A DNA stretch of 64,000 bases from a virus (IMGVR_UViG_3300029908_000004:43458-107457); one strand, 5' to 3'. Counted from the stretch's first letter, positions 1,325 to 55,077 are shown. Translations and numbers: made by a program. Notes: generated by a model from the letters alone, not told the origin.

Positions 1325-3048
1325 GCTTCTAATTCCTTCTCTCGTGGTTCAGCATCATAGCTATCAATAGACAGTTTCATGTCCTCAGAGAACTTTATAG
1401 CCACTTCTACTGATCTCTTGATATCTCCTATTCTAATCTCACGACCATTATCTGCCCGAGCTAGTGTTTGTGACAAACGGATGGCATTTTTGATTTGTCG
1501 TCCGTTTAGATTATAAACACTCATCTCTTTCGACCACTGTGCATTCATTTTGGCCGCTTCTAGTAGGTTGTACCAGATTTTCTCTCTCTTTTCCTGTCCG
1601 TTGTTACAGAAATGAAGTGCTACAGAGATGCGGCTATAAAATGCCTTATCAATATTCTTGACACGATTGGTGGTAAGGAAAAGTACTCCGTTGTGATATT
1701 CTAGCAAACGAAGGAAAACACCAACCATAGCATTTCTTTCGATGTCGTGCTCATCACGAGCTTCCAAGAAGATATCTGCCTCATCCAGAAGGATAACAGC
1801 ATCCCAAATCGTTGCTACCTCCAAGATATTGCGTAAATGAGATTCCAAGTGTTCTGTATCTGTTCCCAATTCTCCTACTGAGACTGAATACAGTGGCTTG
1901 TGAAGAATTTCTGCAACTGCTTCAGCAGAAGCAGTTTTACCTAACCCCGGTTCTCCATGAAGCAGGAAGATGCAGCCTCCACCTTTACCTTCAATGATAT
2001 CGGTGAATCCGCCACCATGGTATTTAACCAGAGAGTAAATCAAATCCTTACTGTCTTGATCCAACACCAGTCGATCAAAAGCATCCTCACGGAAATTGAT
2101 CTCGCTCAAGCCAGAAAGTCTTAGACGTCCCCATTCCTTAACTTGTAAGCTAAACCCCAGAAGATATGGATAACAGCGCCAATAGTCTTCTTCTTTTAAC
2201 TTGGTTTCATCTTTTTGGGTAACTTCTACTTCATCGTCGTCTTCCAAATTGATACCCAACATACGTCCACATTGGCCCCAAACGTCAGGTTTTAATCTGG
2301 AGAAGGAAACTGGATCGATTACCACACGACCAGAAGCTCTCGTTATCTTGTTCCCGAGCCAACTTGGTGATATCATGTTGCCTTCGTAATGAAGGTACCT
2401 ACCCGGTTTAGACATTGATAGAATCTTCTCTCCACGTTCGGACATGGACTTCTTCTCAGAGTCAGTGACCAACCGAATTGGTAACGAACTAATTGGTACG
2501 CTACCCGGGAATCCGTTTATTCCGAATGAATAATCATTCTCCACGATTTTGCCGCATAACCCATGTATAACCCTTAGGGAGATCCTGAATACAGGACCCA
2601 TCCATGTATAATCTATTCTTGACTTCCTGACGATACCACCAATGGCTTCTTCCCCTTGGATAACAACTTCTTTCTCTTCTGGGAAATATCTTATCATATC
2701 GTTAAGGGTAAGAACTCCGTTATCGATTCTTGCTAAGAATAATTTCTCTAACAATTCCCCCATCGACTGAATATATTTATAAAGGTCTTTACCCTTTTTG
2801 TCAGTTTTCAGCGATGTCCCCTCGTTTGATACATAGCCGTGATAAAACTGACACAATACATAGATAGGGTATCTATGACGATATATAATTGCGGCTTCGT
2901 AATCCCATACTTTTGTTAGATCGCTAAACACTAAAGTCTTTATATATTGGTCTTTAACAGATCGGAAACAGACCACTTCTTCACCAGAAATATCAAGAAT
3001 TGTGTAGAAGTCTGTTGCATTAATTAATTTCTCTGCGATTTCCATACG
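1321..3048 (-). CDS. AAA+ ATPase with large N-terminal domain
   Basis: Walker A GEPGLGKT, Walker B ILLDEAD, sensor/arginine-finger region LTTNRVKNIDKAFYSRI. Start trimmed to the internal Met (MEIAEKL) because the upstream extension of the ORF overlaps the tRNA at 3148-3232. Confidence 0.8.
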   Translation of the reverse strand, partial: RMEIAEKLINATDFYTILDISGEEVVCFRSVKDQYIKTLVFSDLTKVWDYEAAIIYRHRYPIYVLCQFYHGYVSNEGTSLKTDKKGKDLYKYIQSMGELLEKLFLARIDNGVLTLNDMIRYFPEEKEVVIQGEEAIGGIVRKSRIDYTWMGPVFRISLRVIHGLCGKIVENDYSFGINGFPGSVPISSLPIRLVTDSEKKSMSERGEKILSMSKPGRYLHYEGNMISPSWLGNKITRASGRVVIDPVSFSRLKPDVWGQCGRMLGINLEDDDEVEVTQKDETKLKEEDYWRCYPYLLGFSLQVKEWGRLRLSGLSEINFREDAFDRLVLDQDSKDLIYSLVKYHGGGFTDIIEGKGGGCIFLLHGEPGLGKTASAEAVAEILHKPLYSVSVGELGTDTEHLESHLRNILEVATIWDAVILLDEADIFLEARDEHDIERNAMVGVFLRLLEYHNGVLFLTTNRVKNIDKAFYSRISVALHFCNNGQEKREKIWYNLLEAAKMNAQWSKEMSVYNLNGRQIKNAIRLSQTLARADNGREIRIGDIKRSVEVAIKFSEDMKLSIDSYDAEPREKELEA

Positions 3049-3147
3049 AATTGTCCTTTTCTTGGAGCTGGTGACCGAAGTCGAATCGATAACCTCTACT
3101 TTACGAAAGTATTGCTCTTCCAATTGAGCTACACCAGCGTTGATATC

Positions 3148-3232
3148 TGGAGCGAGAGACGGGATTTGAACCCGCATGTCTTTCAACGGTAGCTTGGAAG
3201 GCTACTGACCAACCGAGTAGGTCATCTCCCGC
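3148..3232 (-). tRNA. tRNA-Gly (anticodon UCC) with atypical 13-nt variable arm, CCA encoded
   Basis: Acceptor GCGGGAG/CTCTCGC with U73, as in bacterial tRNA-Gly. D-arm GACC-TACTCGGTT-GGTC. Anticodon arm GTAGC-CTTCCAA-GCTAC. Variable region CGTTGAAAGACAT can form a small stem (GTT-GAAA-GAC). T-arm GCGGG-TTCAAAT-CCCGT. Confidence 0.7.
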
Positions 3233-3502
3233 TTATGTATTCGCTGTTGCTTCTGTGAAATCCAGATATACGTACTTTCCGGTACAGGAGGCAGTATCTG
3301 GCCCCAACTTCTCGAAAAACTCGATAGCCGCTGGGTTGGTAAGCGTCAGCTCGACGCTTCCTGATGGTGTAGAATTGGAAAAGCTCTCGTTTTCCGGGTT
3401 AGATTCGTCGCCCTTGTAAACGGCATAAAGCTTGACTACCACATTCCCATATTGATCCTTGAGAATGTTGCTTACGGTGAACTTTGCTCGTACTCTTTCC
3501 AT
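3233..3502 (-). CDS. hypothetical protein (89 aa)
   Basis: Intact ORF abutting the tRNA 5' end; no recognisable motif. Confidence 0.5.
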   Translation of the reverse strand: MERVRAKFTVSNILKDQYGNVVVKLYAVYKGDESNPENESFSNSTPSGSVELTLTNPAAIEFFEKLGPDTASCTGKYVYLDFTEATANT

Positions 3503-4089
3503 TTGATTTTCCTTTTCCCGTAGTTACGGGAGTCAAGTGTGTAATTCCCAAAAATAAGATGGTGGGACCACGAGCGCGAACACAGCTCAAGCTGTATCCC
3601 ACCATCAATAAAGCTATTCAGTTGTCAAATATCTATAATAGACTGCCTAGGCAACCTATTGGTAAGCGTTAAGATTTATCATAATTCACTAGATGATCAA
3701 GCTCGCCTAAATCTAGTTCGTCTATATCTTCGGACTCATAGCCCTGTTCTTTGGCTAAAGCTAACATTGAGTATACTTGTTCATCCGAGTATTCCCAATG
3801 TCCCTTCCCTCTTATCTTGTGGTAAATTCCAAATCCCATTTGCCTACCTAAACTAAAAGGGAGAATGATTAACATTCTCCCTCTGTGATACAGAAACTTG
3901 TATGCTTAAGCTACAAGATTTTACCAAGAGGGTTCGTAGTGTTAATATGGGTGAATGAACTACCCGAATACACGAGTCCTGTGCGCCCCGTAAAGGGTGT
4001 TTCACTGGATAATACGAATTGATATCTTGGTTTCATTTTTGCTTAACTCTGATTAGTATAGCACTTCTTAGTACAAAGTCCAGAACTAT

Positions 4090-10415: not shown

Positions 10416-10559
10416 CTAGATATTTCTGCCAGAGAATAGCCCTATCATTAATACTATAAAGGCTAGTACTAGTAAAAGGTGGATTAAACCGCCTGCTATA
10501 TGGAGACCGAAACCAAGTAACCATAAAAATAGTAAAATTATTAATATCGTCCAAAGCAT
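10416..10559 (-). CDS. small membrane protein (47 aa), not in ORF track
   Basis: GAAGGA SD; single/double TM (MLWTILIILLFLWLLGFGLHIAGGLIHLLLVLAFIVLMIGLF). Confidence 0.4.
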   Translation of the reverse strand: MLWTILIILLFLWLLGFGLHIAGGLIHLLLVLAFIVLMIGLFSGRNI

Positions 10560-10611
10560 ATGAATCCTTCACGTTATTGTAGGGTGGTTCCCCACCCTAC
10601 AATGTTGAATG

Positions 10612-10767
10612 TTAGAGCCTACCCAATACTAGAAGTATAATGAGGATTAAAAGAACTAATCCTATTCCTCCACTTGGAAAGTATCCCCAATTCTGACTGT
10701 GTGGCCAAGAAGGCAACGCACCGACGAAGAAGAAGATCAATAGTATTACTAGGATTATTCCTAACAT
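10612..10767 (-). CDS. small membrane protein, DUF3309-like (51 aa), not in ORF track
   Basis: AAGGAG SD 6 nt upstream. Sequence MLGIILVILLIFFFVGALPSWPHSQNWGYFPSGGIGLVLLILIILLVLGRL matches the widespread DUF3309 small-protein pattern (GALP.WP.S..WGY.PSGG). Confidence 0.5.
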   Translation of the reverse strand: MLGIILVILLIFFFVGALPSWPHSQNWGYFPSGGIGLVLLILIILLVLGRL

Positions 10768-10778
10768 CTGTTACTCCT

Positions 10779-11438
10779 TTACATTGATACGTTTATTGCT
10801 ATTGCTACACCAGCATGTCTACTATCATATAGATAATACCCACCACCTTCATAAACAATATAGCAATCATCTGTATCATACCAGTTATCGCCCCAGTCCC
10901 CGGGATAAGGGTCAGCTAGTACAAACCAAAAACCGTTATATTGGAAGCTTGGGAACCCATTAACCAATCTATATGGGTAGCTGCCAATTCTGAATGAGTG
11001 TTCTCTTCCGAATGACGTTCTAAACCTATCATCTGGAATATGATACCCGTTATACCCGCCACGAGCTGCCCAAGTCTTATGTTCACCAGCCCAATTACCT
11101 GACTTGTGAGCTTGCCAATCACTTCTTTGTTCTTTTGGTCTCTGTTCTTGTTTAGGCTGTTGAGCTTGCTTCGGAGCATGTTGTTGTTTAGGCTGTTGAT
11201 CTCTTTGTTCTACTCGTTGAGCGCTCGGCTTCGACATCTGAGAAGGCTGGCTGCGTGGATGTGATTGAGGACGCTGTTGGTCCATATTATGTTGTGGTTT
11301 CGCACTCTGTTGTGATTTAACTTGTTCGTGCTGTTGAGCTGGCTTTTCTTGCTTTTCACCAGACTTCTGTGCGTATACTGGGGCTATCCCAATAAGTGCA
11401 CACATCAAGATACCTAAGTATCTACTTTTCATGAACAT
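10779..11438 (-). CDS. secreted Gln/Pro-rich protein with Tyr/Trp/Gly-rich C-terminal domain (219 aa)
   Basis: Signal peptide MFMKSRYLGILMCALIGIAPVYA. Long Q/P/K low-complexity linker. Aromatic-rich C-terminal domain (possible RcnB-like fold, uncertain). Confidence 0.6.
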   Translation of the reverse strand: MFMKSRYLGILMCALIGIAPVYAQKSGEKQEKPAQQHEQVKSQQSAKPQHNMDQQRPQSHPRSQPSQMSKPSAQRVEQRDQQPKQQHAPKQAQQPKQEQRPKEQRSDWQAHKSGNWAGEHKTWAARGGYNGYHIPDDRFRTSFGREHSFRIGSYPYRLVNGFPSFQYNGFWFVLADPYPGDWGDNWYDTDDCYIVYEGGGYYLYDSRHAGVAIAINVSM

Positions 11439-11517
11439 TGTTCTCCATTGCTACTAATAAAAGCTCAATGGCTTTCACTTGTTTCAGTCCTACATGTTTA
11501 ATTAGTATACGATAATT

Positions 11518-11916
11518 CTATCCATCTATGTTAGTGTTTTGTTTCTTCTTCCAGTCACGTATTGCAGCCGCTATCGCGTCTTGGGCAAGAACCGAGCAAT
11601 GAATCTTGACCGGAGGCAGTGACAGCTCTTTCACTATGTCGGTGTTCTTGATCTGCAGAGCCTCGTCCACCGTCTTGCCTTTTACCCACTCGGTCGCCAG
11701 CGATGACGATGCGATCGCCGAGCCGCAGCCGAACGTCTTGAACTTCGCGTCCTCGATGATCCTGGTCTGCGGGTTTACCCGGATTTGCAGCTTCATGACG
11801 TCGCCGCATTCCGGAGCGCCGACCAGCCCGGTGCCAACCTCATCTGCATTCTTGTCCATGGTGCCGACGTTGCGCGGATTGGTGTAGTGATCCAGTACCT
11901 TATCGCTGTAAGCCAT
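11518..11916 (-). CDS. iscU: Fe-S cluster assembly scaffold protein IscU
   Basis: Near-complete match to the IscU pattern (MAYSDKVLDHYTNPRNVG...GAPECGDVMKLQI...FKTFGCGSAIASSSLATEWVKGKTVDEA...LPPVKIHCSVLA). GAGGAG SD. Local GC content much higher than surroundings. Confidence 0.9.
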   Translation of the reverse strand: MAYSDKVLDHYTNPRNVGTMDKNADEVGTGLVGAPECGDVMKLQIRVNPQTRIIEDAKFKTFGCGSAIASSSLATEWVKGKTVDEALQIKNTDIVKELSLPPVKIHCSVLAQDAIAAAIRDWKKKQNTNIDG

Positions 11917-12610
11917 CCATCTCCTCTACTTGTTGCAAAACACTTCTTACCTTGTTTATATCTAAGCTACTATCATCTTCAGTTCTAACTCTACGCTGCA
12001 TGTCGATCCAATATGGAGCACGGCAAACGTCATTAATTCTTGAGATCTCTTCCTTCACGTTATCTGGTCCTAATCCACCAGCAAACCCTATCGGGAATGC
12101 AAACGTTGGTGACGGCCATTTGTCTGGGATGATACCCCTTCCACCGGATTTGTCAAATAATCCTTGAGCTCTGAATCCACAAGATTTCAGTGCATAAGGT
12201 AGTAGGTTATTTACCCCGTCCAACTGAAAGATAAACTTTTTCTGACTAAGCTCCTTAAGTCTGTTTACCATACTAAATGTGGAACTGTGTGTTTCGCTGT
12301 GAGTGTTAATCTGAATTCTATCGCTTATATTAACACAAGCAGGTAGAGCTGTCCAGTCTAACTCACCAATCAGTAATTCTTTAACCCATGCACCACAGAT
12401 ATGTGTAGCTACCTGAAGTTCATTTATCTCAGCAGCTTTGGAGAATTGTGATATCCAATGATTGAATGGAAATCTAGGCTCACCGAAGTGGTCTCTAGAT
12501 ACTAAGATCCCCCATTCTACGAATGGGAACTCTTTACTAAGCTCAACCAGATCGTTGATATTGGTAGCATCATCAGCTCCAGTGATTGTTACTGTGTGTG
12601 GATAAAACAT
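11900..12610 (-). CDS. TIM-barrel protein, phosphoribosylanthranilate isomerase (TrpF)-like
   Basis: Motif series FQLDG, GGRGIIPDKWPS and FAGGLGPDNVKEEI parallel the TrpF QLHG, GG.G..FDW and LAGGL.PENV motifs. Start trimmed to the Met with an AAGGAG SD so as not to overlap tRNA-Trp. Function assignment tentative. Confidence 0.45.
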   Translation of the reverse strand: MFYPHTVTITGADDATNINDLVELSKEFPFVEWGILVSRDHFGEPRFPFNHWISQFSKAAEINELQVATHICGAWVKELLIGELDWTALPACVNISDRIQINTHSETHSSTFSMVNRLKELSQKKFIFQLDGVNNLLPYALKSCGFRAQGLFDKSGGRGIIPDKWPSPTFAFPIGFAGGLGPDNVKEEISRINDVCRAPYWIDMQRRVRTEDDSSLDINKVRSVLQQVEEMDGLQR

Positions 12611-12709: not shown

Positions 12710-12783
12710 TGGCACAAGCACCAGGATTTGAACCCGTACGAACTGTTTTGGAGACAGTCATGCTACCGTTACATCATGCTTAT
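12710..12783 (-). tRNA. tRNA-Trp (anticodon CCA), CCA encoded
   Basis: Acceptor ATAAGCA/TGCTTGT, D-arm ATGT-AACGGTA-GCAT, anticodon arm ACTGT-CTCCAAA-ACAGT, T-arm ACGGG-TTCAAAT-CCTGG, discriminator G. Confidence 0.8.
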
Positions 12784-13164: not shown

Positions 13165-13239
13165 TGGTACGCCGTGAGAGATTTGAACTCCCAACCTCTT
13201 GCTTGTAACGCAAATACTCTACCATTGAGCTAACGGCGT
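13165..13239 (-). tRNA. tRNA-Val (anticodon UAC), CCA encoded
   Basis: Acceptor ACGCCGT/ACGGCGT, D-arm GCTC-AATGGTA-GAGT, anticodon arm TTTGC-GTTACAA-GCAAG, T-arm GGGAG-TTCAAAT-CTCTC, discriminator A. Confidence 0.9.
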
Positions 13240-13529: not shown

Positions 13530-15230
13530 TTACTCCGCTTCTGCTTCTTCAGTTTCCAATACTTCCGTTTTCCCTGAAACGAATTGGGCAATCAACGAAG
13601 GCACATTGGTATCGAATCCAACCACGTCCAACGAACGTACATCGTTTGGATCTGCGATCGAGAATCCAGTTGCTGTCATCCCGATGACAATCTGATGAGC
13701 GTTACGTCCAGAACTCTGACGATAGCTCTCCAAAGCGCTAAATACGTGTTTAGGTCCTGCCCAAGTCTCGTTGTCAGTGATGTTGACAAACACATCGACT
13801 GGCATCTTCTTTTCTTGTGCATCCTTATATGGAAGTGAACAATCTGTTCCTCCCCACCCTGTGCGTAGTGCCTTGGATATTGCTGCGTCTAGCTTCATGG
13901 ATTTAACCAATCCAACATCAATCATCTTGGTGTTGTAGGAAGCAACGTGATGCCATGGCTCATTATGCATGATTACCATAGCCATTGCTACTGCACCCAT
14001 GATTGGTGACATGTTTGGACAACCAACAAGATTTCCCCATCCCATTGAGCCGGAACAATCCAAGCCAATGTAATAGTTCAAATTGGTGGTTTCAGCATTC
14101 TTAAACGTCTTATAGAACGCTGCGTCCATAGCATCCAAAACTGGTTTCACCACTGTCCAAGTCAACGAGCCACGAATGCCATGACCAGTTTGATAGGTTA
14201 ACATAGCATTCAGAACAGTTAGTGGGTGAACACGACTACGTTGCAGATATTCCTGATCCGACAGACGTGTTACTACTAGCTTTGACGCCTCTGATAGAGG
14301 AGCTAACAGCTTGATGCTACTCATCTTACCAAGGTTCCTGATCATTGCGTTCATGGGCATTTTCTGAAGCAATGCCTCCCAAACTGCAACGTGGTTCAAT
14401 GCCTCTGTAGGGATCATTTCGCGAGTGAGGTTGTACTTCTGAATCGCTGAAATGATTACCTTTGGGTCTTTTTCATTCTTCATTGCCTCGAACTGCTTAA
14501 TCAGTTCTGGCAAGTCCTTCTCTAAATCGGTTGCTCCGTGCAGACCTTTGGTAGCCCAATCAAACAAGGCTTTCTGCCCATTCGACAACGTAGCATGGGT
14601 ACCTGCATGGGTGGCACGAAGGATGTCGCGATGGCTCCATCCTTGTGTTCCATCCACACGCCGTGATTGGTATTTCACCATCTGATAAGCCAGTTTCTGC
14701 TCATCTTTCTGTGTGTACCAATCTGCTACGCCGTTGCGTAGTGACCTATTCCAACGCATCTTTGCGGCACCTTCGGCCTGTTTTGACCGCATGCCTTTCA
14801 GATATTCCATTAGTTGGAACAAATGCGTTCCGATACGTGCTACGTCTGGCAGTTTATCCAAGGCGTAACCACGAGTGGATTTGTCACCGAATGCTATACA
14901 CTGTGCCAACGCGAACAGGGCATAGTCATTCTTTGGAGCCCGGCCAGATACAGAGATATCGACAATCGTTTTTACTGTCTTCTCTCCATCTGCCGAAATA
15001 CAGCGTTCAACGCACTTTGCGTTGTCACGCGTCAACTTGTCGGCACCAACATAATAAGTGCCACCTTCGCTTCCAAGAATTATAAATCTCTGGAGTCGGT
15101 CCCAGTCACTCAGTTCAAAAACATAACCTCCAGCGTTATTCTGAACTTGATTCTTTTCTGGGAATGGTTCACTTTGAGGAATTGTTGGCTTCATCGCCCC
15201 ATACACATTTGTTAGGTTGGGTTTCTTCAT
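13530..15230 (-). CDS. rsr: Ro60/Rsr ortholog (TROVE domain + vWA domain with MIDAS)
   Basis: N-terminal TROVE-like segment (YVFELSDWDRLQRFIILGSEGGTYYVGADKL). C-terminal vWA with MIDAS DxSxS (YYIGLDCSGSM). Length 566 aa typical of bacterial/phage Rsr. Confidence 0.8.
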   Translation of the reverse strand: MKKPNLTNVYGAMKPTIPQSEPFPEKNQVQNNAGGYVFELSDWDRLQRFIILGSEGGTYYVGADKLTRDNAKCVERCISADGEKTVKTIVDISVSGRAPKNDYALFALAQCIAFGDKSTRGYALDKLPDVARIGTHLFQLMEYLKGMRSKQAEGAAKMRWNRSLRNGVADWYTQKDEQKLAYQMVKYQSRRVDGTQGWSHRDILRATHAGTHATLSNGQKALFDWATKGLHGATDLEKDLPELIKQFEAMKNEKDPKVIISAIQKYNLTREMIPTEALNHVAVWEALLQKMPMNAMIRNLGKMSSIKLLAPLSEASKLVVTRLSDQEYLQRSRVHPLTVLNAMLTYQTGHGIRGSLTWTVVKPVLDAMDAAFYKTFKNAETTNLNYYIGLDCSGSMGWGNLVGCPNMSPIMGAVAMAMVIMHNEPWHHVASYNTKMIDVGLVKSMKLDAAISKALRTGWGGTDCSLPYKDAQEKKMPVDVFVNITDNETWAGPKHVFSALESYRQSSGRNAHQIVIGMTATGFSIADPNDVRSLDVVGFDTNVPSLIAQFVSGKTEVLETEEAEAE

Positions 15231-20895: not shown

Positions 20896-21384
20896 TTAAG
20901 CGCGTAAACTTGCTTCCAAGAAATAGAGGAACTTTTCTAATCCTCTTACTAACCCAATATATACGTCTTGGGTTATTAGATCCCCATTCTCACTGGAGAC
21001 TTTCATACCTTTCCTCATTGCATTGGAAATGTCACTGATATAATCTGACATCTTTTCTATGTGGGTTCTACAATTGTCATCATAGATACCAGCGTAAGTA
21101 AAACCTTGACTATTGTTTGTAACCATCCAAGGTTTACCTTCTGGTACACCACCTAGAGCTGTTATTCGCTCGGCGATAGTATCGCTAGCATCTGCCATAT
21201 AATCATAGATTTGATCAAATAGTAGATGTGTAGGATGAAATCCATCCCCTTTCACATTCCAGTGTGCAAATTTTATATCCATTTGTGCCAGCATGGTATT
21301 AGCAAGATTCACGTTTAGATTGTCGACGATTACCTTGATCTTATCTTCTGGCACGTCAATGCGCGTCGTATACAATTCACTCAT
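20896..21384 (-). CDS. dps: Dps-family ferritin-like DNA-binding protein
   Basis: Dps signature: LNVNLANTMLAQMDIKFAHWNVKGDGFHPTHLLFDQIYD...TIAERITALGGVPEG... C-terminal WFLEA-like helix (KFLYFLEASL). Confidence 0.8.
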   Translation of the reverse strand: MSELYTTRIDVPEDKIKVIVDNLNVNLANTMLAQMDIKFAHWNVKGDGFHPTHLLFDQIYDYMADASDTIAERITALGGVPEGKPWMVTNNSQGFTYAGIYDDNCRTHIEKMSDYISDISNAMRKGMKVSSENGDLITQDVYIGLVRGLEKFLYFLEASLRA

Positions 21385-25674: not shown

Positions 25675-26331
25675 TTACATATTCTTCAGCAAATCTTCTG
25701 CGGCTGCCGTTGTCTCAGGATCTTCAGATGTAGTGACAGCTCCCATGGCACGGTTCAACTTCTCTGTGGCTATATCATTCTGTGCTCGCATGCGCCCTTC
25801 AACATCATCGACAGAGATATCTGCCCCACTGCCTACTAATCTACCCGCGTGCTCAAGAGCAGTTGCTGCATGAGTTTGAGCCTTCGAGGACTGATTTAGT
25901 GCCTCAAGTTCACGAACTTTGCTCAACATCTCTGCATGCTTACTGGTAATATTGGCGACTGAAATGTCCATCTTGTTCGATGTTTCCGTCTCTGAAATCA
26001 ACAAAGCCTGCTTGTTGGTTACTTCATTCTGTAACCGAACAATTTCCTTTGCTTTTTCCAAAGCCTGATCAGGATGCCCGTTGTTTTTCAGCTTCGTTGC
26101 TGTAATTCTGGAGGTCTCGATTTTTGCATTGAGATCGTCGATCTCACGCTTTGTCGTGTGAACTGTAGCTGCTGCTACCGCTGCTTCTCCACGTAGCTGG
26201 TCAAGAGCCTCTTCCAGATCCCTTACATACTGCCGAAGAGCAGATGGACTGTTAAGATCGATCACTTTGTCAAGTAGATCATGGGTCTCACCAAGTCCAA
26301 TCGTTCTGAGCTTGCTAAAAATTCCTGTCAT
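25675..26331 (-). CDS. pspA: PspA/IM30 (phage shock protein A family, ESCRT-III-like)
   Basis: N-terminus MTGIFSKLRTIGLGETHDLLDKVIDLNSPSALRQYVRDLEEALDQLRGEAA parallels the PspA opening MGIFSRF..IVNANINALLEKAEDPQK..R..I.EMED.L. Long coiled-coil, 219 aa. Start trimmed to this Met (purine-rich SD). Confidence 0.8.
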   Translation of the reverse strand: MTGIFSKLRTIGLGETHDLLDKVIDLNSPSALRQYVRDLEEALDQLRGEAAVAAATVHTTKREIDDLNAKIETSRITATKLKNNGHPDQALEKAKEIVRLQNEVTNKQALLISETETSNKMDISVANITSKHAEMLSKVRELEALNQSSKAQTHAATALEHAGRLVGSGADISVDDVEGRMRAQNDIATEKLNRAMGAVTTSEDPETTAAAEDLLKNM

Positions 26332-26347
26332 TGCCTTTCCCTTCTTC

Positions 26348-27688
26348 TTAGAAATCGCTACTACCACCGCCGCCGCTGTCGGAACTGCTGCTACTGTCAA
26401 AGCTGCTACTCCCGCCGCTGTCAAAGCTAGAACTGGAATCAGAACTACCCCAACTGGATGAGCCACCAGACTCGCTTTCACGATCTGGTTCTGGATCTGG
26501 AGCTCTGTACGTTGATTCTTCTCGTCTTGGTTCTTCGCGACGAATCTCTTCCACACGTGGTCGATTGTTTATAGATTCGCCGATGAGAACACCAGTCAAT
26601 AAATCATTGTTGGGAGTTGATGTCGGTGTTGGTTCATAAGTCGGTCTTTGTTCTATGTTATGGTGCTGGTGATGATGCCTAACTTGGTTGTATCCAGTGG
26701 TATCATTTACATCGGCAGTGTCAATGGGGGGTCCTTGTTCAGCCGGCTGTTCCGTTGCCATTGGGCTCTGTACATATTTGTGTGCTGAACGTAGAGACTC
26801 GAACTTATCGATGAGGATTCGATATTCTTTGGTAATGGCTTGATAACCATCTTCTGTCATACTTTGTTTGGGGTCCATCGAGTCTGAGTTCTCCATATTG
26901 GAAAACTCTTCCATATACGTATCAAACATATCTTGAATGGATTTCTCTGGTGGATCACTCTGGAACGCTGATTTGAGGGTAAGAACTAGCGCAATACATT
27001 GATTCTTTGTAACTTGAGCTAACCTCTTCGCTTTTGCTTTGGCATCTCTTATTTCTGCCCAACGGGTGCAAGCGATATACCCTGCGGCAATAATGAAGAT
27101 TAAGAACCCCAATCCAAGACACCATAGTAGTACAGTCCATAAACCTTTATAGTCCGTTGCTTGGACATTGGTTGTGTTCTGGACTGGGTGTAGAGCTTCA
27201 TCTTTGGAAGCCGCTAATCGAAGTGAGAATTGTTCGATACCAGTAGACATGCCAAGTGCATAGTTACCGTCTTTGAATCTTGGGATCATATAGGACGTCA
27301 TGATCCGGTTCCAATTTCCGTCTAGTGCGGAATGCCAAGCGGAACCATACATTATTCCTACTTTATGATTCCCGGCTAACATAAAAACAATGAGTGTACT
27401 TTTACGTCCACCGCTGCCACTTTCCCAAGAGGCACATTGGTTCTCCATCTGTTTTTCTGTGATATCGAGGTTGGTGCTATACCCGACTGTCCTTATTCGG
27501 ACATCAGCGCCTTGTTGAACCAACCTGTTCGCAGCGGTTTCTACTGTTGTAATACCTTTTCCAAACAGATTTGCTTGGTCAATGACAATGTTGTCACACA
27601 ATAGAGATTGAGCCATGACCCAACCTGACGTTGAAAACACCATCATCATAACCAACAACGTATACATTGTCAGCTTTGAACTTTTCAT
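26348..27688 (-). CDS. TPM-domain protein (YgcG-like): signal peptide, TPM domain, TM helix, Gly/Ser-rich C-terminal tail
   Basis: Signal peptide, TPM-like block (VIDQANLFG...VRIRTV), central TM (LWTVLLWCLGLGFLIFIIAAGYIA), C-terminal GGSSSWGSSDSSSSFDSGGSSSFD...GGGGSS tail. Sits 16 nt upstream of pspA. Confidence 0.7.
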   Translation of the reverse strand: MKSSKLTMYTLLVMMMVFSTSGWVMAQSLLCDNIVIDQANLFGKGITTVETAANRLVQQGADVRIRTVGYSTNLDITEKQMENQCASWESGSGGRKSTLIVFMLAGNHKVGIMYGSAWHSALDGNWNRIMTSYMIPRFKDGNYALGMSTGIEQFSLRLAASKDEALHPVQNTTNVQATDYKGLWTVLLWCLGLGFLIFIIAAGYIACTRWAEIRDAKAKAKRLAQVTKNQCIALVLTLKSAFQSDPPEKSIQDMFDTYMEEFSNMENSDSMDPKQSMTEDGYQAITKEYRILIDKFESLRSAHKYVQSPMATEQPAEQGPPIDTADVNDTTGYNQVRHHHQHHNIEQRPTYEPTPTSTPNNDLLTGVLIGESINNRPRVEEIRREEPRREESTYRAPDPEPDRESESGGSSSWGSSDSSSSFDSGGSSSFDSSSSSDSGGGGSSDF

Positions 27689-27740
27689 ACACTCCACCTC
27701 CAAGTGGATCGGGAGGGTTGTTACACCCTCCCTTTACTAG

Positions 27741-29852: not shown

Positions 29853-31364
29853 TTACACGTCTTTTAGGACGGTGAATGAATCCTTTCGTTTCCTTCTATG
29901 ACAATTTGTACACATTATGAACTCTTTTGTATCATTTTTACAATTGTATTCTTCCCTGATAGTGGTTTTTACCATTCCATGAGGATAATTTATCTCATTA
30001 CTGTTTTTATCCTTCATCCTAACCCCAGTAGTGAACATCATAGTTCCTTTACATTTGGGGCACTTTGCTGCTATACGGATAACCTTGGATTGGTCGGAGA
30101 AGAATCCAGTTTTCAGAAGTCTATTGACATGTTTATACCAAACTTCACAGATTGCTTTCTTAATTGAATCTTTACCATAACTAGGGTTCTCTAGTTGATA
30201 GTCAAAAGCACGCTCCAACATTCTTTTATATTCATTACTGGGGGTGAATCCCCACTCGGTGAGATCGTCGCCAGTAACCAATGGTTTGGGGAATCCAAGA
30301 GTCTTAGCAGCAGTTATATACCCTATGGTATTCTCCATATTTATAGAGATGATCTTAGCATTAACTAGAATCCATAGTAATTCTATAGCTCTGTTTATAT
30401 TTGGCTTGTTGGCAAGCTTCCTTCTTTCACATAGTGAAGTAAGCCTATTAGACCTAAGATCAATTACTATTTGCACCATCTCTGAGATTGTATTTCTGTC
30501 TTCGTTAGAGAATTTGAGATATTTTAATACATCCCCAATATTCCAATATATACCAGTTGTATACAAAAGACAACACCATGCTAAGATTGGATCTTTAACT
30601 TGTCCAATCTTGTCGAAATTGACAGTTTGATCTACTATATTAAAAAGGGAATTTGGTTGTTGCTCATAGATTTTGGTGTATAAATTAGTTCTCTGAAGAC
30701 AGAACAAAGCGTCACCGACGTGTTCCCCCGTTATGAGCTTTGTCATTTCGTCTCTAACACGTTCTCGCGAAACCCTAATCATCAAATTTGCATTATTACG
30801 AATTGCTCGTAATGTCTCAAATTCTATCTGAAACCCAAGTTGTGACACGAATCTAACAGCTCTTAACATTCGAAGAGGATCCTCTTGGAAACGAATGTTA
30901 GGGTCACCAATACAACCAATCCTTCGTATTGATATATCATATTTACCACCAACATAATCAATAACTTCCATTGACTCTGGGTTCATCAATATCCCATTCA
31001 TCCTAAAATCTCTACGACCAGCGTCAATACATTCTTGATCAGTAAATATAACACTATCCGGTCTACGAAGGTCTGAATACTCAGTAGAATCACTTCTCAA
31101 TGTAGCTACTTCTATGGAGTGATCTACACCATCTATATCAACAAGGACTTTTACAACTCCGAATTCTACTCCAATTGGAATATTGTGGGGAAATAGATCC
31201 ATTACTTCATTGGGTTTAGCTGAAGTACATATATCAAAGTCTTTCGGTTCCTTGTTCATAAGAAGGTTTCTAACACACCTACCTACAAGGAAGACTTTGA
31301 AGTTATTTTGCTTTAACGTCTTAGCTACTTTCCTAGCAGCTTCTAAACTACTTATCTCTGGCAT
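29853..31364 (-). CDS. cca: CCA-adding tRNA nucleotidyltransferase with C-terminal zinc ribbon
   Basis: Head-domain motifs VFLVGRCVRNLLMNKEPKDFDICTSAKPNEV and RRDFRMNGILMNP (Pol-beta/PolyA_pol family). C-terminal CPKC...CTNCH. Start placed at the ATG with an AGGA SD. Confidence 0.85.
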   Translation of the reverse strand: MPEISSLEAARKVAKTLKQNNFKVFLVGRCVRNLLMNKEPKDFDICTSAKPNEVMDLFPHNIPIGVEFGVVKVLVDIDGVDHSIEVATLRSDSTEYSDLRRPDSVIFTDQECIDAGRRDFRMNGILMNPESMEVIDYVGGKYDISIRRIGCIGDPNIRFQEDPLRMLRAVRFVSQLGFQIEFETLRAIRNNANLMIRVSRERVRDEMTKLITGEHVGDALFCLQRTNLYTKIYEQQPNSLFNIVDQTVNFDKIGQVKDPILAWCCLLYTTGIYWNIGDVLKYLKFSNEDRNTISEMVQIVIDLRSNRLTSLCERRKLANKPNINRAIELLWILVNAKIISINMENTIGYITAAKTLGFPKPLVTGDDLTEWGFTPSNEYKRMLERAFDYQLENPSYGKDSIKKAICEVWYKHVNRLLKTGFFSDQSKVIRIAAKCPKCKGTMMFTTGVRMKDKNSNEINYPHGMVKTTIREEYNCKNDTKEFIMCTNCHRRKRKDSFTVLKDV

Positions 31365-31489: not shown

Positions 31490-32407
31490 CTACTTGTTTG
31501 GAATTCCAATCAGAAAGTTTCCACCCTTGTCACCACCGGATAGATACTCTGGCATACGACCATCCCAACGCCAAATAGCAGCATTCTGGTTATCCAGTGC
31601 TCTCATATTTAAGATGTTTGGTGTGATTGAAGCGTTCCTGATTCTATTGGCTTCCGCTTCACCAGTAGCCTTGGTAATCTGTGCCTTAGCTTCACCCTCA
31701 GACTGAGCAACTAGTTTAGCTGCATCAGCTTGCACCTGAATAAGCTCAATCTGCTTCTTCTGTGCAACTTGATTTGCCTGTGCCTTATTGTTGATAGCAT
31801 CGATTACTGATTGAGGTGGCCTTGGTGCTCCGATGAACCCGAACTGAGTAAGCTCAGCTCCATACTCTAATACTTGGCTTTGAACGCATTTCTTGGTTTC
31901 TTCAATGAAAACTGCGTTATCACCCATAACTTGTTCGATGCCATACTTGCCGGCATGTTCATTGAAGCAGTCTCTTGCTATGTTTCTAAGGAACCCGTGA
32001 GTGAATTTCGTATCAATTTCTTTTTCGTCGTGTGCCAAGAACTTTACATAGAAGTATGGAACTTTCTCTGCATGTAGGAAATAACTCAATGAGATATCAG
32101 CACCAATTACCATTGAATCTTTGTTGGTAAAGGTGATACTCTCGTCGATTGGCTTGCCCTCGTTGGGGCTTGCAGTCCATTTCGCTGTCTGCATGGAGGT
32201 TGGGTATTCATACACACTCTCGGTAATTGGGTTATAAAACACCCAGCCAGTACGAACAGGGGTATCCGTTACCCCTTTGCTTGAACCTGCCATGTTTACA
32301 ACAATTCCGACATGTCCCGGTCCAACTGACGTCCAGCCACAACCGGTTAGGAGACAAGCGGATAAGATAGTAACAATCAAGCTAAGATTCGCTGTGTTTA
32401 GTTTCAT
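31490..32407 (-). CDS. SPFH/Band-7 (stomatin/HflK-like) lipoprotein
   Basis: Lipobox LLTGC after the signal peptide. SPFH core (PGHVGIVVNM...). Ala/Gln/Glu-rich coiled-coil tail (AQSEGEAKAQITKATGEAEANRIR). AAGGAG SD at the trimmed start. Confidence 0.8.
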   Translation of the reverse strand: MKLNTANLSLIVTILSACLLTGCGWTSVGPGHVGIVVNMAGSSKGVTDTPVRTGWVFYNPITESVYEYPTSMQTAKWTASPNEGKPIDESITFTNKDSMVIGADISLSYFLHAEKVPYFYVKFLAHDEKEIDTKFTHGFLRNIARDCFNEHAGKYGIEQVMGDNAVFIEETKKCVQSQVLEYGAELTQFGFIGAPRPPQSVIDAINNKAQANQVAQKKQIELIQVQADAAKLVAQSEGEAKAQITKATGEAEANRIRNASITPNILNMRALDNQNAAIWRWDGRMPEYLSGGDKGGNFLIGIPNK

Positions 32408-32657
32408 TTTCGTTCTCCTTGTGATACTGAAGTTGTAGGTAATGATATGTTTCTCCAAACAATTTATAACTCCAAGAACTTGCGTACTTCCAACTGATGA
32501 ACAAACTAATCAATACAACAAACAGCCCAAAGAAAGCCAATAGAGTACTGGGAGCGGATAAGGCAACAAACCCCCAATTCATGACATATAACCCAGCGCA
32601 TGTTACAACTACAATCTTGAGAGATTGTATAAGGAAGTGCCACCAGAATCTATTCAT
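32382..32657 (-). CDS. small two-TM membrane protein upstream of SPFH (NfeD-like partner?)
   Basis: Two hydrophobic helices (IVVVTCAGLYVMNWGFVALS, LLAFFGLFVVLISLFISW). Position mirrors NfeD-SPFH operons. Confidence 0.5.
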   Translation of the reverse strand: MNRFWWHFLIQSLKIVVVTCAGLYVMNWGFVALSAPSTLLAFFGLFVVLISLFISWKYASSWSYKLFGETYHYLQLQYHKENENETKHSES

Positions 32658-36538: not shown

Positions 36539-37780
36539 TCATTTTAAGATACCTTTGAAGGACTCAACTGACATTCTGTCCTCGAACCTTGGTCCAAACG
36601 AGATTGTGTTGATAGTCGGTTCCAACAAATTCTTTAGAACAGACAAGTAAGTGCTTAGACTCGGGGGTTGTATAAACAAACCCTTCTCTGAGTCGATTAT
36701 CTTCAGATAGTCTGTCCACCTGTCCAAATGGGACAAAGCTATTTCATCTACGCCTTTACAAATCTTAATGGACTTATTGACAAGCCCAATGTCCAAGTGT
36801 CCCACCCGAAACTCCCCTTGATACTCGCCTTTCTGGTTATGATTTTCTGGCAGTAAACCAGTTAATCTCATATCCTCGGTTGGGAATGGACCCACTCCGT
36901 GACGAGTGGCGTAGGTTCTTATACAGCCAATTCTGACTCTGTTACCAATGAACCCAGAAATGTTGAGCAAATCATCAGCATTCCTGAAAGTTGTGTTGGT
37001 CCATGAGTTATACGGATAGGTCCCATACCACTCATCTAACATTACTCCTTGTGCCCCCTCGAACACAGATGCAGTGGATTTTGATAGCAAATCAGAAAGG
37101 AACTCTTGTGGCTTTACCTGAGCGTTCCATTTGCTATATATCCGACTGTGCCATTCAGACCAGTCTTCATTACTATCTACTATGATGTCGTAGTCCTTTT
37201 TCCACTGGTCCACTGGTATCTTTTCCAATGTCGGAAGCAGCTCTTTCAGCTTGGCGAGGTACACCTTGTGAAGGAAGCTCAATTTGCTACGTGTTACCTC
37301 TTCTGATTCTATGTCTTTAGCAAATAGGACGTTGTTCCCATATTCAATGGAATCACTACGAGTTTGTCCTATTCCTTGTCCACAGCTACCGTGTCTGTTC
37401 TTCCCTCTGGCAATTTCTCTCAACCTTCCAAAAGCTATTTGGAAGGGAGTGACTACCAAGCAATCCCCATCAACAAATGTTCTGTCCCATATATCAGTTA
37501 TCCCAAGGGACATTAGATGAGCTGCTTCTCTCATCATGTAGAATGGATTGACCAATGTAAACTTGGACAAGTAAGTCTTCACATTGGGTTGTAGCATCCC
37601 ACTACCAAACTGTTGGAAGGTATGGCTTCTCGATAATTCAACAACGTTATGTGCAGCTTGTGGCCCACCGTTGTATCGAACTATCAAATCAGCTTTGTGA
37701 GTACGGGTTAGATACTCTACGTGGGCTCCTTTTGCGCAATCGCCCCATAGCATCCCAGCAACGAGATATGCTATACCCAT
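36539..37780 (-). CDS. adenylosuccinate synthetase family protein (PurA/PurZ-like) with divergent nucleotide-binding motifs
   Basis: PurA fold hallmarks (LWGDCAKGAHVE...VRYNGGPQAAHN; GSCGQGIGQT; TYATRHGVGPFPTE). The P-loop GDEGKGK is replaced by GDCAKGA and the guanine-specificity motif TKLD by SHLD. Start at the Met with a GGAGG SD. Confidence 0.85.
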   Translation of the reverse strand: MGIAYLVAGMLWGDCAKGAHVEYLTRTHKADLIVRYNGGPQAAHNVVELSRSHTFQQFGSGMLQPNVKTYLSKFTLVNPFYMMREAAHLMSLGITDIWDRTFVDGDCLVVTPFQIAFGRLREIARGKNRHGSCGQGIGQTRSDSIEYGNNVLFAKDIESEEVTRSKLSFLHKVYLAKLKELLPTLEKIPVDQWKKDYDIIVDSNEDWSEWHSRIYSKWNAQVKPQEFLSDLLSKSTASVFEGAQGVMLDEWYGTYPYNSWTNTTFRNADDLLNISGFIGNRVRIGCIRTYATRHGVGPFPTEDMRLTGLLPENHNQKGEYQGEFRVGHLDIGLVNKSIKICKGVDEIALSHLDRWTDYLKIIDSEKGLFIQPPSLSTYLSVLKNLLEPTINTISFGPRFEDRMSVESFKGILK

Positions 37781-37871
37781 TAGTACCTCCATCTCTATTT
37801 GAGTTTGTGCTGTAATACTTACATGGATGAAGCATTCCTGATTACTTAGTTAAGCACAAGAAGTTGACGTT

Positions 37872-47888: not shown

Positions 47889-48422
47889 TTACGAACTAAC
47901 CGGTTTTTCTATTAACTCTCTTAGACAAGTTACAAGAAATTTGTCCACAGTCAAAGTTGTACTTGGTAACACAGTTACCACTTTTATACCTAAACCAGTG
48001 GCAATCCGAATGCCTTGTCTTGTCCCACCGTTGCCATCTTCTTGTGGAAATGCACACACAAGACAAGATCCTTCGATAATACCGAAGTTACGAGCATGAA
48101 GCTTAAACGCTCCCTGTGTTAGAAAACTTGGATTCGGATGGTATTGTATAACTGAATCTCTCCAATCCAGATGAACCAACTCATCATACACAATCTTGTG
48201 TGTACAGTCTCTCGGTATAATCCCCGAGTTGTATGAGTACCAAGGCAAATACACTCGTAGATTCTTGGGTGTAGCGTTTAGCATGGCTGCGTGATCAATT
48301 CCCATTGCTGCTCCAGTAGCGATTACATAGTCGAGGAAGGAGAATTTTCTCGCTGCAGCTGCAGCTAATACAAGTTGTCGTTGACTGGGGTTACGAGTGC
48401 CAATAATGGCAATCTTGCTCAT
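47889..48422 (-). CDS. DprA/Smf-like Rossmann-fold protein, paralog 1
   Basis: KIAIIGTRNPSQ...LAAAAA...VIATGAAMGIDHAAM and later GSCLVCAFPQEDGNGGTRQGIRIA parallel the DprA GTR.PS...LA..LA...VSGLA.GID.AAH and SGSLITA motifs. Confidence 0.6.
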   Translation of the reverse strand: MSKIAIIGTRNPSQRQLVLAAAAARKFSFLDYVIATGAAMGIDHAAMLNATPKNLRVYLPWYSYNSGIIPRDCTHKIVYDELVHLDWRDSVIQYHPNPSFLTQGAFKLHARNFGIIEGSCLVCAFPQEDGNGGTRQGIRIATGLGIKVVTVLPSTTLTVDKFLVTCLRELIEKPVSS

Positions 48423-48439
48423 TACTTATCTCCAATGTA

Positions 48440-48748
48440 TCACTTCTTCGGTGTCAAAGTTCCGAGAGAACGTGTGTAGCAGAGAACTTTACCGTCTACT
48501 GCTACACCAACATAGTTTCCATTCTCTCGGAACTGGACGACCTCATGTCCTTCTCTAGCTAACTTCCCCCAGAGGCTTGGCTTGTTTGGATTTTGTTCAA
48601 TTGCAAGGACAGGTTTTCCACCGGTGTCCCTGAAAAACGCGGTACGAAGACCACTAATTGATGTCCTCTTGATAGTTAGTGACTTACCACTCTTCGTTAT
48701 CCCCGTGAACAATGCTCTTGCTATTGCTTTGAACAGAGTTCCATTCAT
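48440..48748 (-). CDS. hypothetical protein (102 aa)
   Basis: Intact ORF between the two DprA-like paralogs. Confidence 0.45.
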   Translation of the reverse strand: MNGTLFKAIARALFTGITKSGKSLTIKRTSISGLRTAFFRDTGGKPVLAIEQNPNKPSLWGKLAREGHEVVQFRENGNYVGVAVDGKVLCYTRSLGTLTPKK

Positions 48749-49277
48749 ATTCCCTCCGTTGGCTTTGTTCTCTCAACCGTTCGATACACAGAGCCATTAG
48801 CTCACCTTTGCTAATAGCAGACTCTGGTTCGATAGGGATCACAGGAATGTCGTAGTAGGTTGCCATCTTTATTGCTATGGCAGTGGCACCATTCCCACCG
48901 GACTGTGGGAATGCAACTAACAGCTCACTACCTACGACGGCACCGTAGGTACAAGCATGGATTGCAATTGCCCCTTTACTTAACACTGACGGGTTAGGGT
49001 GGAAAGCGAACACAGCATCTCTCCATGCTGGGTCCCTAAACTCATCGTACAAATAAATGTTTGCATGAGATGGGAGCATATCTTGGGCATAGCTCAACCA
49101 TGGAATTACAACATTTAACTTTGGTTCCTTGCAGTTCATCATTACTGATTGATCAACGCCTCTAGAGCCTCCAGTGAATATATCAAAACCCTTTCCCGAG
49201 AATTCTTTTGCTACAACCGCAGCTAGATACAACTGGGTTGTTACTGGCCTACGGGTTCCCAGTACTGCTATCTTCAT
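48684..49277 (-). CDS. DprA/Smf-like Rossmann-fold protein, paralog 2
   Basis: KIAVLGTRRPVTTQLYLAAVVA...IFTGGSRGVDQSVM ... HPNPS ... AFPQSGGNGATAIAIK; collinear with paralog 1. Confidence 0.6.
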   Translation of the reverse strand: MKIAVLGTRRPVTTQLYLAAVVAKEFSGKGFDIFTGGSRGVDQSVMMNCKEPKLNVVIPWLSYAQDMLPSHANIYLYDEFRDPAWRDAVFAFHPNPSVLSKGAIAIHACTYGAVVGSELLVAFPQSGGNGATAIAIKMATYYDIPVIPIEPESAISKGELMALCIERLREQSQRREYEWNSVQSNSKSIVHGDNEEW

Positions 49278-54378: not shown

Positions 54379-55077
54379 CTACTTGATGCGGGTCGCGTTC
54401 GGGATGGTGGAAACGATCTCGGACGTACCGTCCTTGTACTTGACTTCCAACATCTCAACGCGGAGGCTGTGCTGCCCTTCCAACTGCTGTTGAACAGCGG
54501 CATTGCCTACACGTAGTGCTGCAGCGCGTGCCGCCCTGCTGTACATCGGCTGACCGATAACGTTCAGACTCAGAACCTCCTCGTTGTCGGCGATCGATCT
54601 GAGCACATCTTCGTCCGGACCGAATCCGTTCAGACGAATCGTTTCGCCCTTACGGAATCGACCGATCAAAGAGATGTAAGGCTCACCGGTTTCCGTGTAG
54701 CCTTTCTCCGTGCGACCGCGATAACGCTGGATACGCCCGCCAACGTTCACTTCCTGAGCTGCCCGTGGAGCAGCGGTAACGTCGCGAACGATCTGAATGC
54801 CGGTGCAAACATCCAAACGGATCTGCCGTTGGAAAGTCCCGCCCAATGCTGACTCCGAGATATTGAAGACAGCCTGACCGGGGTAGTACTCACCGGACAC
54901 TTCGAGGTCAATTGGCCGAGCCGACCTTGCAGGACTCGGTGCGCCCACTGGGGCCGTACGACTGGAATGAGCAGCTGGTACTGCCGGCGCTGCCGTTGTT
55001 GGCTGGTTCTGATTGGCTTGTTCCATTGTATTATTCTCCGCGACTGAGTCGCTAAGTTCATCGATCTCTTTTCCCAT
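54379..55077 (-). CDS. hypothetical protein encoded by a GC-rich island (232 aa)
   Basis: GC content far above flanks; Ala/Pro-rich N-terminus; no motif recognised. Confidence 0.6.
   Translation of the reverse strand: MGKEIDELSDSVAENNTMEQANQNQPTTAAPAVPAAHSSRTAPVGAPSPARSARPIDLEVSGEYYPGQAVFNISESALGGTFQRQIRLDVCTGIQIVRDVTAAPRAAQEVNVGGRIQRYRGRTEKGYTETGEPYISLIGRFRKGETIRLNGFGPDEDVLRSIADNEEVLSLNVIGQPMYSRAARAAALRVGNAAVQQQLEGQHSLRVEMLEVKYKDGTSEIVSTIPNATRIK

Follow-up and report, generated by a model that had tools for sequence, protein, structure and literature searches.

A mosaic phage iscU gene joining a host-identical 5′ tract from Terriglobales to a diverged 3′ segment of phage composition

The stretch of DNA analysed here (the window) comprises 64,000 nucleotides (nt) of the viral contig IMGVR_UViG_3300029908_000004 (positions 43458-107457) and carries, on its minus strand, a gene for the iron-sulphur (Fe-S) cluster scaffold protein IscU. 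Comparison with bacterial homologs showed that codons 1-108 of this gene are 99.7-100% identical at the nucleotide level to the chromosomal iscU of an acidobacterial population, while the following codons are strongly diverged and have the composition of the surrounding phage genes. We are confident that the gene derives from the iscU of a Terriglobales host and was recently exchanged, and the sequence change within a single open reading frame (ORF) implies that two histories are combined in one gene. Counted from the first letter of the window, the ORF and the parts of the mosaic are as follows.

11518-11916, minus strand: iscU ORF with an ATG start and a product of 132 residues, a type-I Fe-S cluster scaffold with the cluster-ligand and partner motifs all intact.
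11591-11918, minus strand: host-identical tract, consisting of the 2 nt before the ATG and codons 1-108; GC content at third codon positions (GC3) 0.78.
11540-11590, minus strand: diverged, still homologous 3′ segment with codons 109-125 (helix alpha5); 16 nt differences and the replacements E to Q, R to A and S to R.
11518-11539, minus strand: phage-specific extension NTNIDG and stop codon; similarity to the bacterial iscU stops at the host stop codon.
11919-11932, minus strand: phage-supplied ribosome-binding region GAGGAG, read from the sequence directly upstream of the ATG.

The mosaic became apparent in a base-by-base alignment with the bacterial contig L172, and the same identity figures were obtained with L173 and L175 from other samples. 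Across 11591-11918, 325 of 326 compared nucleotides were identical; the lone mismatch, an A in the window versus a G in the bacterium, lies at position 11704, which is polymorphic among contigs with the phage allele, three of which (L082, L089, and L090) have the G and hence a tract identical in 326 of 326 positions. In the adjacent 3′ segment the density of mismatches rose from 1/326 to 16/49, with 16 of the 17 coding mismatches located there (Fisher p=1e-14). Eleven of its 17 third positions were changed, and six of the nine purely synonymous changes went from GC to AT. The 3′ sequence of the phage gene contains VLAQDAIAAAIRDWKKKQ, the letters of the phage-type 3′ segment being GCCCAAGACGCGATAGCGGCTGCAATACGTGACTGG, and its 3′ end reads AQDAIAAAIRDW; the last six codons, NTNIDG, extend beyond the position of the host stop codon. 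While the host 3′ segment is 76-94% identical to those of 80 Acidobacteriota genomes, the 51-nt phage segment showed 65-75% nucleotide identity to any of the 176 iscU copies compared. At the other end, the 5′ junction sits in the repeated ATGG of ATGGATGG, and the base alignment revealed no homology to L172 upstream of 11919 except a weak residual similarity (9/14) of 11919-11932 to the bacterial iscS-iscU spacer. The host parent of the mosaic was found (L172/L173/L175), and the copies compared contained no parent of the 3′ part.

The change in identity coincides with an equally abrupt change in composition. The iscU ORF has a GC content of 0.551 compared to a mean of 0.431 (standard deviation 0.039) across all 399-bp windows, i.e., about three standard deviations above it, and none of the 63 other ORFs in the window, which average 0.412 (standard deviation 0.071), reaches its GC3 of 0.714. 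With 55% GC for the ORF versus 43% for the window, this bears out the composition contrast with the flanks that had been claimed in a first-pass annotation of the same DNA. The GC-rich island is, however, narrower than the ORF: codons 1-108 have a GC3 of 0.778 (z=+5.1 versus the 63 other ORFs), whereas codons 109-133 show an ordinary phage composition (0.44, z=+0.4). The same annotation had noted GC-rich out-of-frame shadow ORFs at this site only. Three such ORFs indeed lie over iscU (11555-11809 on the minus strand, 11606-11887 and 11785-11988 on the plus strand), but overlapping ORFs of at least 90 residues also occur elsewhere (14645-15085 and 14814-15215 inside a TROVE gene, and 30244-30630), and shadow ORFs are a usual by-product of GC-rich DNA. 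The sole other equally GC-rich place in the 64 kb, 54379-55077 on the minus strand (GC 0.57, GC3 0.60), encodes a protein of 232 residues with an Ala/Pro-rich N-terminal region, which had no Pfam or PHROG match and gave no sign of a second host capture.

By every sequence test applied, the ORF encodes IscU. Its product matched the Pfam profile NifU_N (PF01592; E=7e-55, 185 bits, cut-off 22) and the NCBIfam model TIGR01999 for the Fe-S cluster assembly scaffold IscU (216.4 bits versus a curated cut-off of 192.4), and the NifU and SufU models of NCBIfam stayed under their own cut-offs. It was also matched by PHROG 8429, a NifU-like Fe-S cluster assembly protein, at 1e-39. The protein aligns over its full length with the structures of E. 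coli IscU (72.4% identity) and human ISCU (74.0%). C-G-D, G-C-G-S, and LPPVKIHCS motifs are visible in the translation, and in the alignment APECGDV, FGCGSA, and LPPVKIHCS correspond column for column to the E. coli and human proteins, with Cys37, Asp39, Cys63, His105, and Cys106 (E. coli numbering) as well as the LPPVK site for HscA all kept.

A search of 5.8 billion proteins returned top non-self matches of 94-98% identity, which belonged to Acidobacteriota wherever they were named; the identity to the donor protein is 97.6% across residues 1-125. In GTDB contigs with one genome per species, 80 of the best 80 loci were from Acidobacteriota, the majority labelled Terriglobia, Terriglobales or Acidobacteriaceae. 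The nearest proteins (P0003, P0010, and P0011) are encoded in Rrf2(iscR)-iscS-iscU-iscA-hscB-hscA-fdx-iscX operons from related metagenomes, and the bacterial contigs bearing these operons have 53-61% GC. The best homologs are therefore chromosomal iscU genes in complete isc operons and not phage copies of similar GC content, which would have pointed to an old phage gene: among the 548 relatives in IMG/VR, the best viral copies reach 83-84% protein identity and have the GC content of their own flanks (13 copies checked). A gammaproteobacterial donor was ruled out (E. coli 72% versus 96-98% for Acidobacteriota, and the best 80 genomes all from Acidobacteriota). Accordingly, the horizontal acquisition proposed in the first-pass annotation stands, with Acidobacteriota (mostly Terriglobales/Acidobacteriaceae) and not Gammaproteobacteria as the donor lineage. 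The almost residue-for-residue match to gammaproteobacterial IscU reported there reflects a likeness of all type-I IscUs, as Acidobacteriota proteins are closer than that of E. coli. Its proposal of a recent event likewise holds for a host-derived and very recent sequence, but not for one clean capture, because only codons 1-108 are host-identical.

The bacterial host gene itself is not mosaic. Its GC3 is uniform (0.79 in the 5′ part and 0.83 in the 3′ part), and its divergence from the sister bacteria L180 and L176 amounts to 7-11% for the 5′ part and 2-6% for the 3′ part. A transfer from host to phage is required by three observations, namely the tract's composition, the placement of the bacterial gene in an operon, and the evenness with which this gene diverges from sister bacteria. 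At 0-0.3%, the difference between tract and host does not exceed that among the host contigs, which are 99.6-99.85% identical to each other, and this marks the tract as recent. The host-identical tract would thus name an uncultured Terriglobales (Acidobacteriota) population as the host of the phage. A 326-nt identity between phage and chromosome is about the strongest host link that can be obtained from sequence alone, and it connects a large phage of ~215 kb, unclassifiable by other means, with this population. Phages of Acidobacteriota were first isolated only in 2025 (PMC11924767).

Regarding the origin of the mosaic, we favor, with reservations, a phage iscU captured at an earlier time, in which recombination with the host gene recently replaced the 5′ part. 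A first step would have been an older illegitimate capture of a host iscU, with one breakpoint a few nucleotides upstream of the ATG and the other immediately ahead of the host stop codon, which gave rise to the NTNIDG tail. The captured copy would then have drifted to phage composition and gained the phage-specific changes in alpha5. In a second, very recent step, codons 1-108 would have been overwritten when, during infection, this copy underwent homologous exchange (gene conversion) with the iscU on the chromosome of the current host. Two events are needed because 0-1 changes in 326 nt stand beside saturated synonymous change in ~50 nt. Several points weigh against this two-step order. The order of events is deduced from composition. 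All homology ceases where the tract ends on its 5′ side, within the ATGG microhomology, which would fit a fresh illegitimate junction as well. Scans for the flanking genes in viral and metagenome contigs and in the protein database revealed no close relative with an ‘old’ iscU, and no parent of the 3′ segment was found among the 176 iscU copies, the 120 best proteins, or in pattern scans of IMG/VR; a protein search with the C-terminal 40 residues returned short bacterial fragments only and did not recover the phage protein itself. Three chimeric contigs (L171, L174, and L090) show assemblers switching between phage and host inside the tract. Moreover, no Fe-S client enzyme was detected among the ~40 window ORFs scanned, and capsid, portal, and terminase genes are absent from the 64-kb window, its phage status being based on PHROG matches, 10 tRNAs, gene organisation, and relatives on viral contigs.

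The strongest of the competing explanations, although an unlikely one, is that the phage never had an old resident copy and that the 3′ segment came from a second, unsampled iscU of a bacterium or a co-infecting phage, which recombined with the host-type gene before or after its entry into the phage. The nearly equal distance (65-75%) of the 3′ segment from all 176 copies is in line with two donors, as is a viral IscU (L236) with the same rare AQDAIAAA motif. However, the L236 nucleotides are ~71% identical and thus no nearer than other copies, neither the 120 best proteins nor IMG/VR contained a donor, and the segment adjoins phage DNA directly and has exactly the GC3 typical of the phage (z=+0.4). 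Less likely still is a single very recent capture of the whole iscU followed by fast divergence of the 3′ end alone, through selection in the phage or local hypermutation. A host-identical 5′ part, a syntenic relative without iscU, and three amino-acid changes on one helix face (i, i+4, i+8), a selection-like pattern, would all agree with it, but it has to accommodate 16 changes in ~50 nt versus 0-1 in 326 nt (p=1e-14). Changes affect 11 of 17 third positions, most of them being synonymous and in the direction of AT, and selection on the protein offers no explanation for the synonymous saturation. We rejected a diversity-generating retroelement, or a repeat nearby, as the origin of the 3′ changes, since the 64-kb window contains neither a template repeat nor any other repeat of the region and the changes are not adenine-specific. 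The least probable account is an old, vertically inherited phage iscU that resembles host genes, or a transfer from phage to host. Phage IscU families do exist (PHROG 8429 and the 548 IMG/VR relatives), but the best IMG/VR copy is 84% identical and such copies match the GC of their own flanks, whereas the tract has a host-like GC3 of 0.78 in a genome averaging 0.41. In addition, the host gene lies in a conserved operon, is uniform in GC, and differs from sister bacteria evenly along its length, and the syntenic relative lacks iscU.

We consider it very improbable that host reads were spliced into a phage contig and that no host-identical tract exists in the phage. Chimeric contigs were indeed found among public Joint Genome Institute (JGI) contigs: L171 (Ga0311361_10109728) and L174 (Ga0311358_10141019) join the phage upstream region to a bacterial iscU-iscA-hscB, and L090 (Ga0302319_10414904) joins a bacterial iscS to the 3′ end of a phage-type iscU, followed by the downstream gene of the phage. 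Possibly, these three are real recombinants instead of chimeras. If they are chimeras, they require exact k-mers that are truly common to phage and host (the ENA contigs are k141 assemblies), and assembler switching inside the tract therefore means that phage and host really share long exact k-mers. Outside of 11540-11932 there is nothing to seed such a switch, as no homology exists upstream of 11918 or downstream of 11540, apart from the 9/14 resemblance in the ribosome-binding region. The phage allele was present in ten independent contigs from JGI and ENA assemblies, made from different samples with different assemblers, nine of which contain both junctions, the 5′ flank of L090 being bacterial. 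Seven of the ten share the private A at 11704, which lies 113 nt from the phage-specific 3′ segment and occurs in no bacterial contig. The identical tract yields chimeric public contigs that can be misread as a prophage, at the junction, or as a phage with a whole isc operon (iscU-iscA-hscBA).

The 3′ segment corresponds to helix alpha5, in which VLAEDAIRAAI.DWKKK is common to the 118 closest non-self homologs where readable, the sole variable residue being the one that precedes DWKKK. The phage protein alone among these homologs reads VLAQDAIAAAIRDWKKK. Consequently, the motif AEDAI(K/R)AA, a conserved trait and not a formal criterion of the IscU family, is not kept in the phage IscU, which reads AQDAIAAA; both E and K/R occur in 170 of the 171 non-self loci. 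The three replacements at i, i+4, and i+8 fall on a single helix face, the first two removing E111 and K/R115 (E. coli numbering) and the third affecting a position that is variable in cellular proteins from bacteria to human. Pattern scans of IMG/VR revealed five viral contigs of three lineages (L236; L234/L235; L244/L246) with E111 changed to Gln, and in all five of these pattern-selected IscUs, as in the window copy, Lys/Arg115 was also replaced (by Gln or Ala). This suggests that E111 and K/R115 form an interacting i/i+4 pair that was lost together. Adaptation and relaxed constraint are both conceivable causes of such a loss.

E111A has been reported to move E. coli IscU towards its structured state (PMC13423590); PMC8199681 was not used as a source on IscU E111, since its E111 entries refer to frataxin. 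By analogy, a helix without the E111-K/R115 pair, together with the tail, may shift the equilibrium between structured and disordered IscU. A more tentative idea, to which we assign a minor chance, is that the helix is, instead of a remnant of drift, a selected, phage-adapted module that was retained while the rest of the gene was repeatedly refreshed from the current host. If so, the hybrid would keep a perfect fit to the host IscS and HscBA while scaffold turnover or the structured/disordered switch is altered, e.g., by a bias to the cluster-holding S state as for E111A. The phage-specific helix would in any case represent a natural IscU variant at E111, a position controlling the conformational switch.

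A further feature was noted on one of the viral contigs with E111 changed to Gln. L236 (IMGVR_UViG_3300044800_000305) encodes, at 2327-3841 on the plus strand, an IscU of 504 residues that follows IscA and is interrupted by an intein carrying an HNH endonuclease. The intein lies directly in front of the cluster ligand Cys37 (...GAPE|CFSG...VVRN|CGDVMKL). Pfam reported NifU_N in two pieces, HNH_3, and Intein_splicing (E=1e-7, just below the cut-off). Genes for ThyX and dCMP deaminase adjoin this iscU, whose product has the rare AQDAIAAA helix as well. A full-text literature search for IscU together with intein found no paper describing an IscU intein.

With respect to function, the sites of E. 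coli IscU for IscS (N-terminal region), HscA (LPPVK), and HscB as well as the cluster ligands all lie within the first ~108 residues. Residues 1-108 of the phage protein, including these partner sites, the three Cys, the Asp, the His, and LPPVK, are identical to those of the host, and the phage IscU should therefore work with host IscS, HscBA, and Fdx without adaptation. We propose that it is expressed from a phage operon by translational coupling to the upstream gene and plugs into host IscS, HscBA, and ferredoxin, which would provide extra scaffold capacity during infection. Raised Fe-S scaffold capacity is the usual rationale for Fe-S auxiliary genes of phages (PMC5332604). Both the expression of iscU and its biochemical role are deduced here from sequence, and the intact motifs make a role as auxiliary metabolic gene plausible. 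A second gene that might belong to a wider iron-handling theme of the phage, as a possible companion of IscU, lies 9 kb from iscU and has a phage-typical composition.

20896-21384, minus strand: Dps-like ferritin (Pfam Ferritin, 1.4e-18; NCBIfam Dps, 110.5 bits versus a cut-off of 114; PHROG 3636; GC 0.39).

The window iscU is an orphan gene, as no iscS, iscA, hscBA or fdx is located beside it. Its immediate neighbourhood consists of an upstream gene that overlaps the host-derived tract and an accessory island.

11900-12610, minus strand: upstream phage gene of 236 residues with a weak NCBIfam PRAI match (E=0.001), a distant hint at a TIM barrel.
10416-11916, minus strand: accessory island with iscU, a secreted-looking Q/P-rich protein of 217/219 residues, a DUF3309 membrane protein of 51 residues, and a membrane protein of 47 residues.

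The last 17 nt of the 236-residue gene, including its stop codon, are located inside the host-derived tract, an arrangement that suggests translational coupling of iscU to this gene. iscU is also probably co-transcribed with the phage operon: no terminator-like site was found in its surroundings, where promoter-like matches were no commoner than in shuffled sequences, and the fold of its 3′ untranslated region was not unusual (z=-0.5). In the nearest syntenic relative (P0191 contigs), in which a flanking gene is 60% identical, the gene order is TROVE-83aa-97aa-234aa-77aa-DUF7873 (aa, amino acids), with nothing between the 234-aa and 77-aa genes. These two conserved flanking genes are separated in the window by iscU, the 217-aa protein, the DUF3309 peptide, and the 47-aa peptide, all four of which are missing from the relative. 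Since the relative runs directly from the 234-aa to the 77-aa gene, iscU is part of a 1.5-kb accessory island and lies outside the conserved core of related viruses. Homologs of the 236-aa gene were detected in many viral contigs at no more than 60% identity, and no iscU was present near the upstream-gene homologs in 52 other loci. The 217-aa downstream gene had no match in IMG/VR, and a protein-cluster look-up for the genes of the 10416-11916 region gave phage-only clusters. Both the 217-aa Q/P-rich protein, which has a signal peptide, and the two small hydrophobic peptides encoded at 10416-10767 on the minus strand (the 51-aa DUF3309 and 47-aa proteins) have a bacterial-type look, together with phage composition and phage-specific protein clusters only.

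That the window is part of a large phage, with contigs of up to 215 kb, is well founded, if by indirect evidence. Nearly all genes are on one strand, most are ORFans, there are 10 tRNAs, and window proteins are also found on a contig of 215,488 bp. iscU is flanked by genes of phage type, namely Ro60/TROVE (PHROG 850), DUF7873, and many ORFans, and further recognisable genes encode a CCA-adding enzyme, a DNA ligase, a PurA/PurZ-like enzyme, an HNH endonuclease, the Dps-like ferritin, PspA, and SPFH proteins. Among GenBank phages, neither megablast of 9-16 kb nor tblastn of a 1058-aa ORF gave a match, and the flanking gene showed at most 40% identity to GenBank sequences, in huge ‘uncultured phage’ records.

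Several of these genes deserve a separate mention. The Ro60/TROVE-vWA RNA-binding protein (13530-15230, minus strand) lies in a tRNA-rich stretch (tRNAs at 12710-12783 and 13165-13239) and is kept in the syntenic relative; a Y-RNA-like partner near it is possible, Rfam at the gathering threshold reporting tRNAs only. The adenylosuccinate-synthetase-like protein encoded at 36539-37792 on the minus strand (Pfam Adenylsucc_synt, 4e-55; PHROG 1211, 1e-61) scored far under the NCBIfam PurA cut-offs and matched PurZ weakly, and it might serve 2-aminoadenine (Z) DNA synthesis or a plain purine boost. PspA/IM30-family, TPM-domain, and SPFH/Band-7 proteins, encoded at 25675-27703 and 31490-32458 on the minus strand, make up a membrane-stress/remodelling cluster that is unusual for a phage. 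Finally, the neighbouring genes at 47889-48422 and 48684-49277 on the minus strand each match a short N-terminal stretch of the DprA profile (DNA_processg_A) only and could represent fragments of paralogs or a domain that was duplicated and then diverged.

Compared with known systems, the window protein belongs to the same length class and fold family as bacterial type-I IscU (E. coli IscU, PDB 2L4X/3LVL; human ISCU), but differs from it in being encoded by an orphan gene, in having Q, A, and R in alpha5 at the positions of E, K/R, and a variable residue, and in its C-terminal extension of six residues. IscU auxiliary genes of phages have been described in marine viral genomes (Nishimura et al. 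2017, PMC5332604). As in these and other phage IscU/NifU-like genes (PHROG 8429; phage C48C1 and Acinetobacter phage MD-2021a contigs in GenBank), the window gene encodes a host-derived scaffold whose phylogeny serves to infer the host. Those copies are 70-84% identical to the window IscU at the protein level; in the 13 IMG/VR copies checked the composition is blended into their own genomes, whereas the window copy is visibly mosaic and host-identical over 326 nt. As far as the searched literature shows, genes of this class had not been associated before with an Acidobacteriota host or with soil or peat.

Intragenic recombination between host and phage is reportedly a feature of cyanophage psbA and psbD (Zeidner 2005). 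For the same genes, Sullivan 2006 described host-phage intragenic recombination with patchy %G+C (PMC1484495). Like these, the window iscU is an auxiliary gene of patchy %G+C in which host-like segments stand beside phage-like segments, a pattern read as segment exchange. Besides the different gene and host, it is distinguished from psbA/psbD by one sharp breakpoint, at which a host tract with 0-1 mismatches in 326 nt abuts a saturated segment of phage composition, and by a host parent that was directly identified, the phage parent not being found. While phage IscU and host-phage mosaic auxiliary genes such as psbA and psbD are thus already established, this instance is new, with its host-identical tract, its clean single breakpoint, and the retained phage-specific C-terminal helix. 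The locus catches gene flow from host to phage nearly in progress and suggests that recombination with the host copy can patch auxiliary genes, which has been proposed for cyanophage psbA and would here concern a central Fe-S scaffold in soil or peat.

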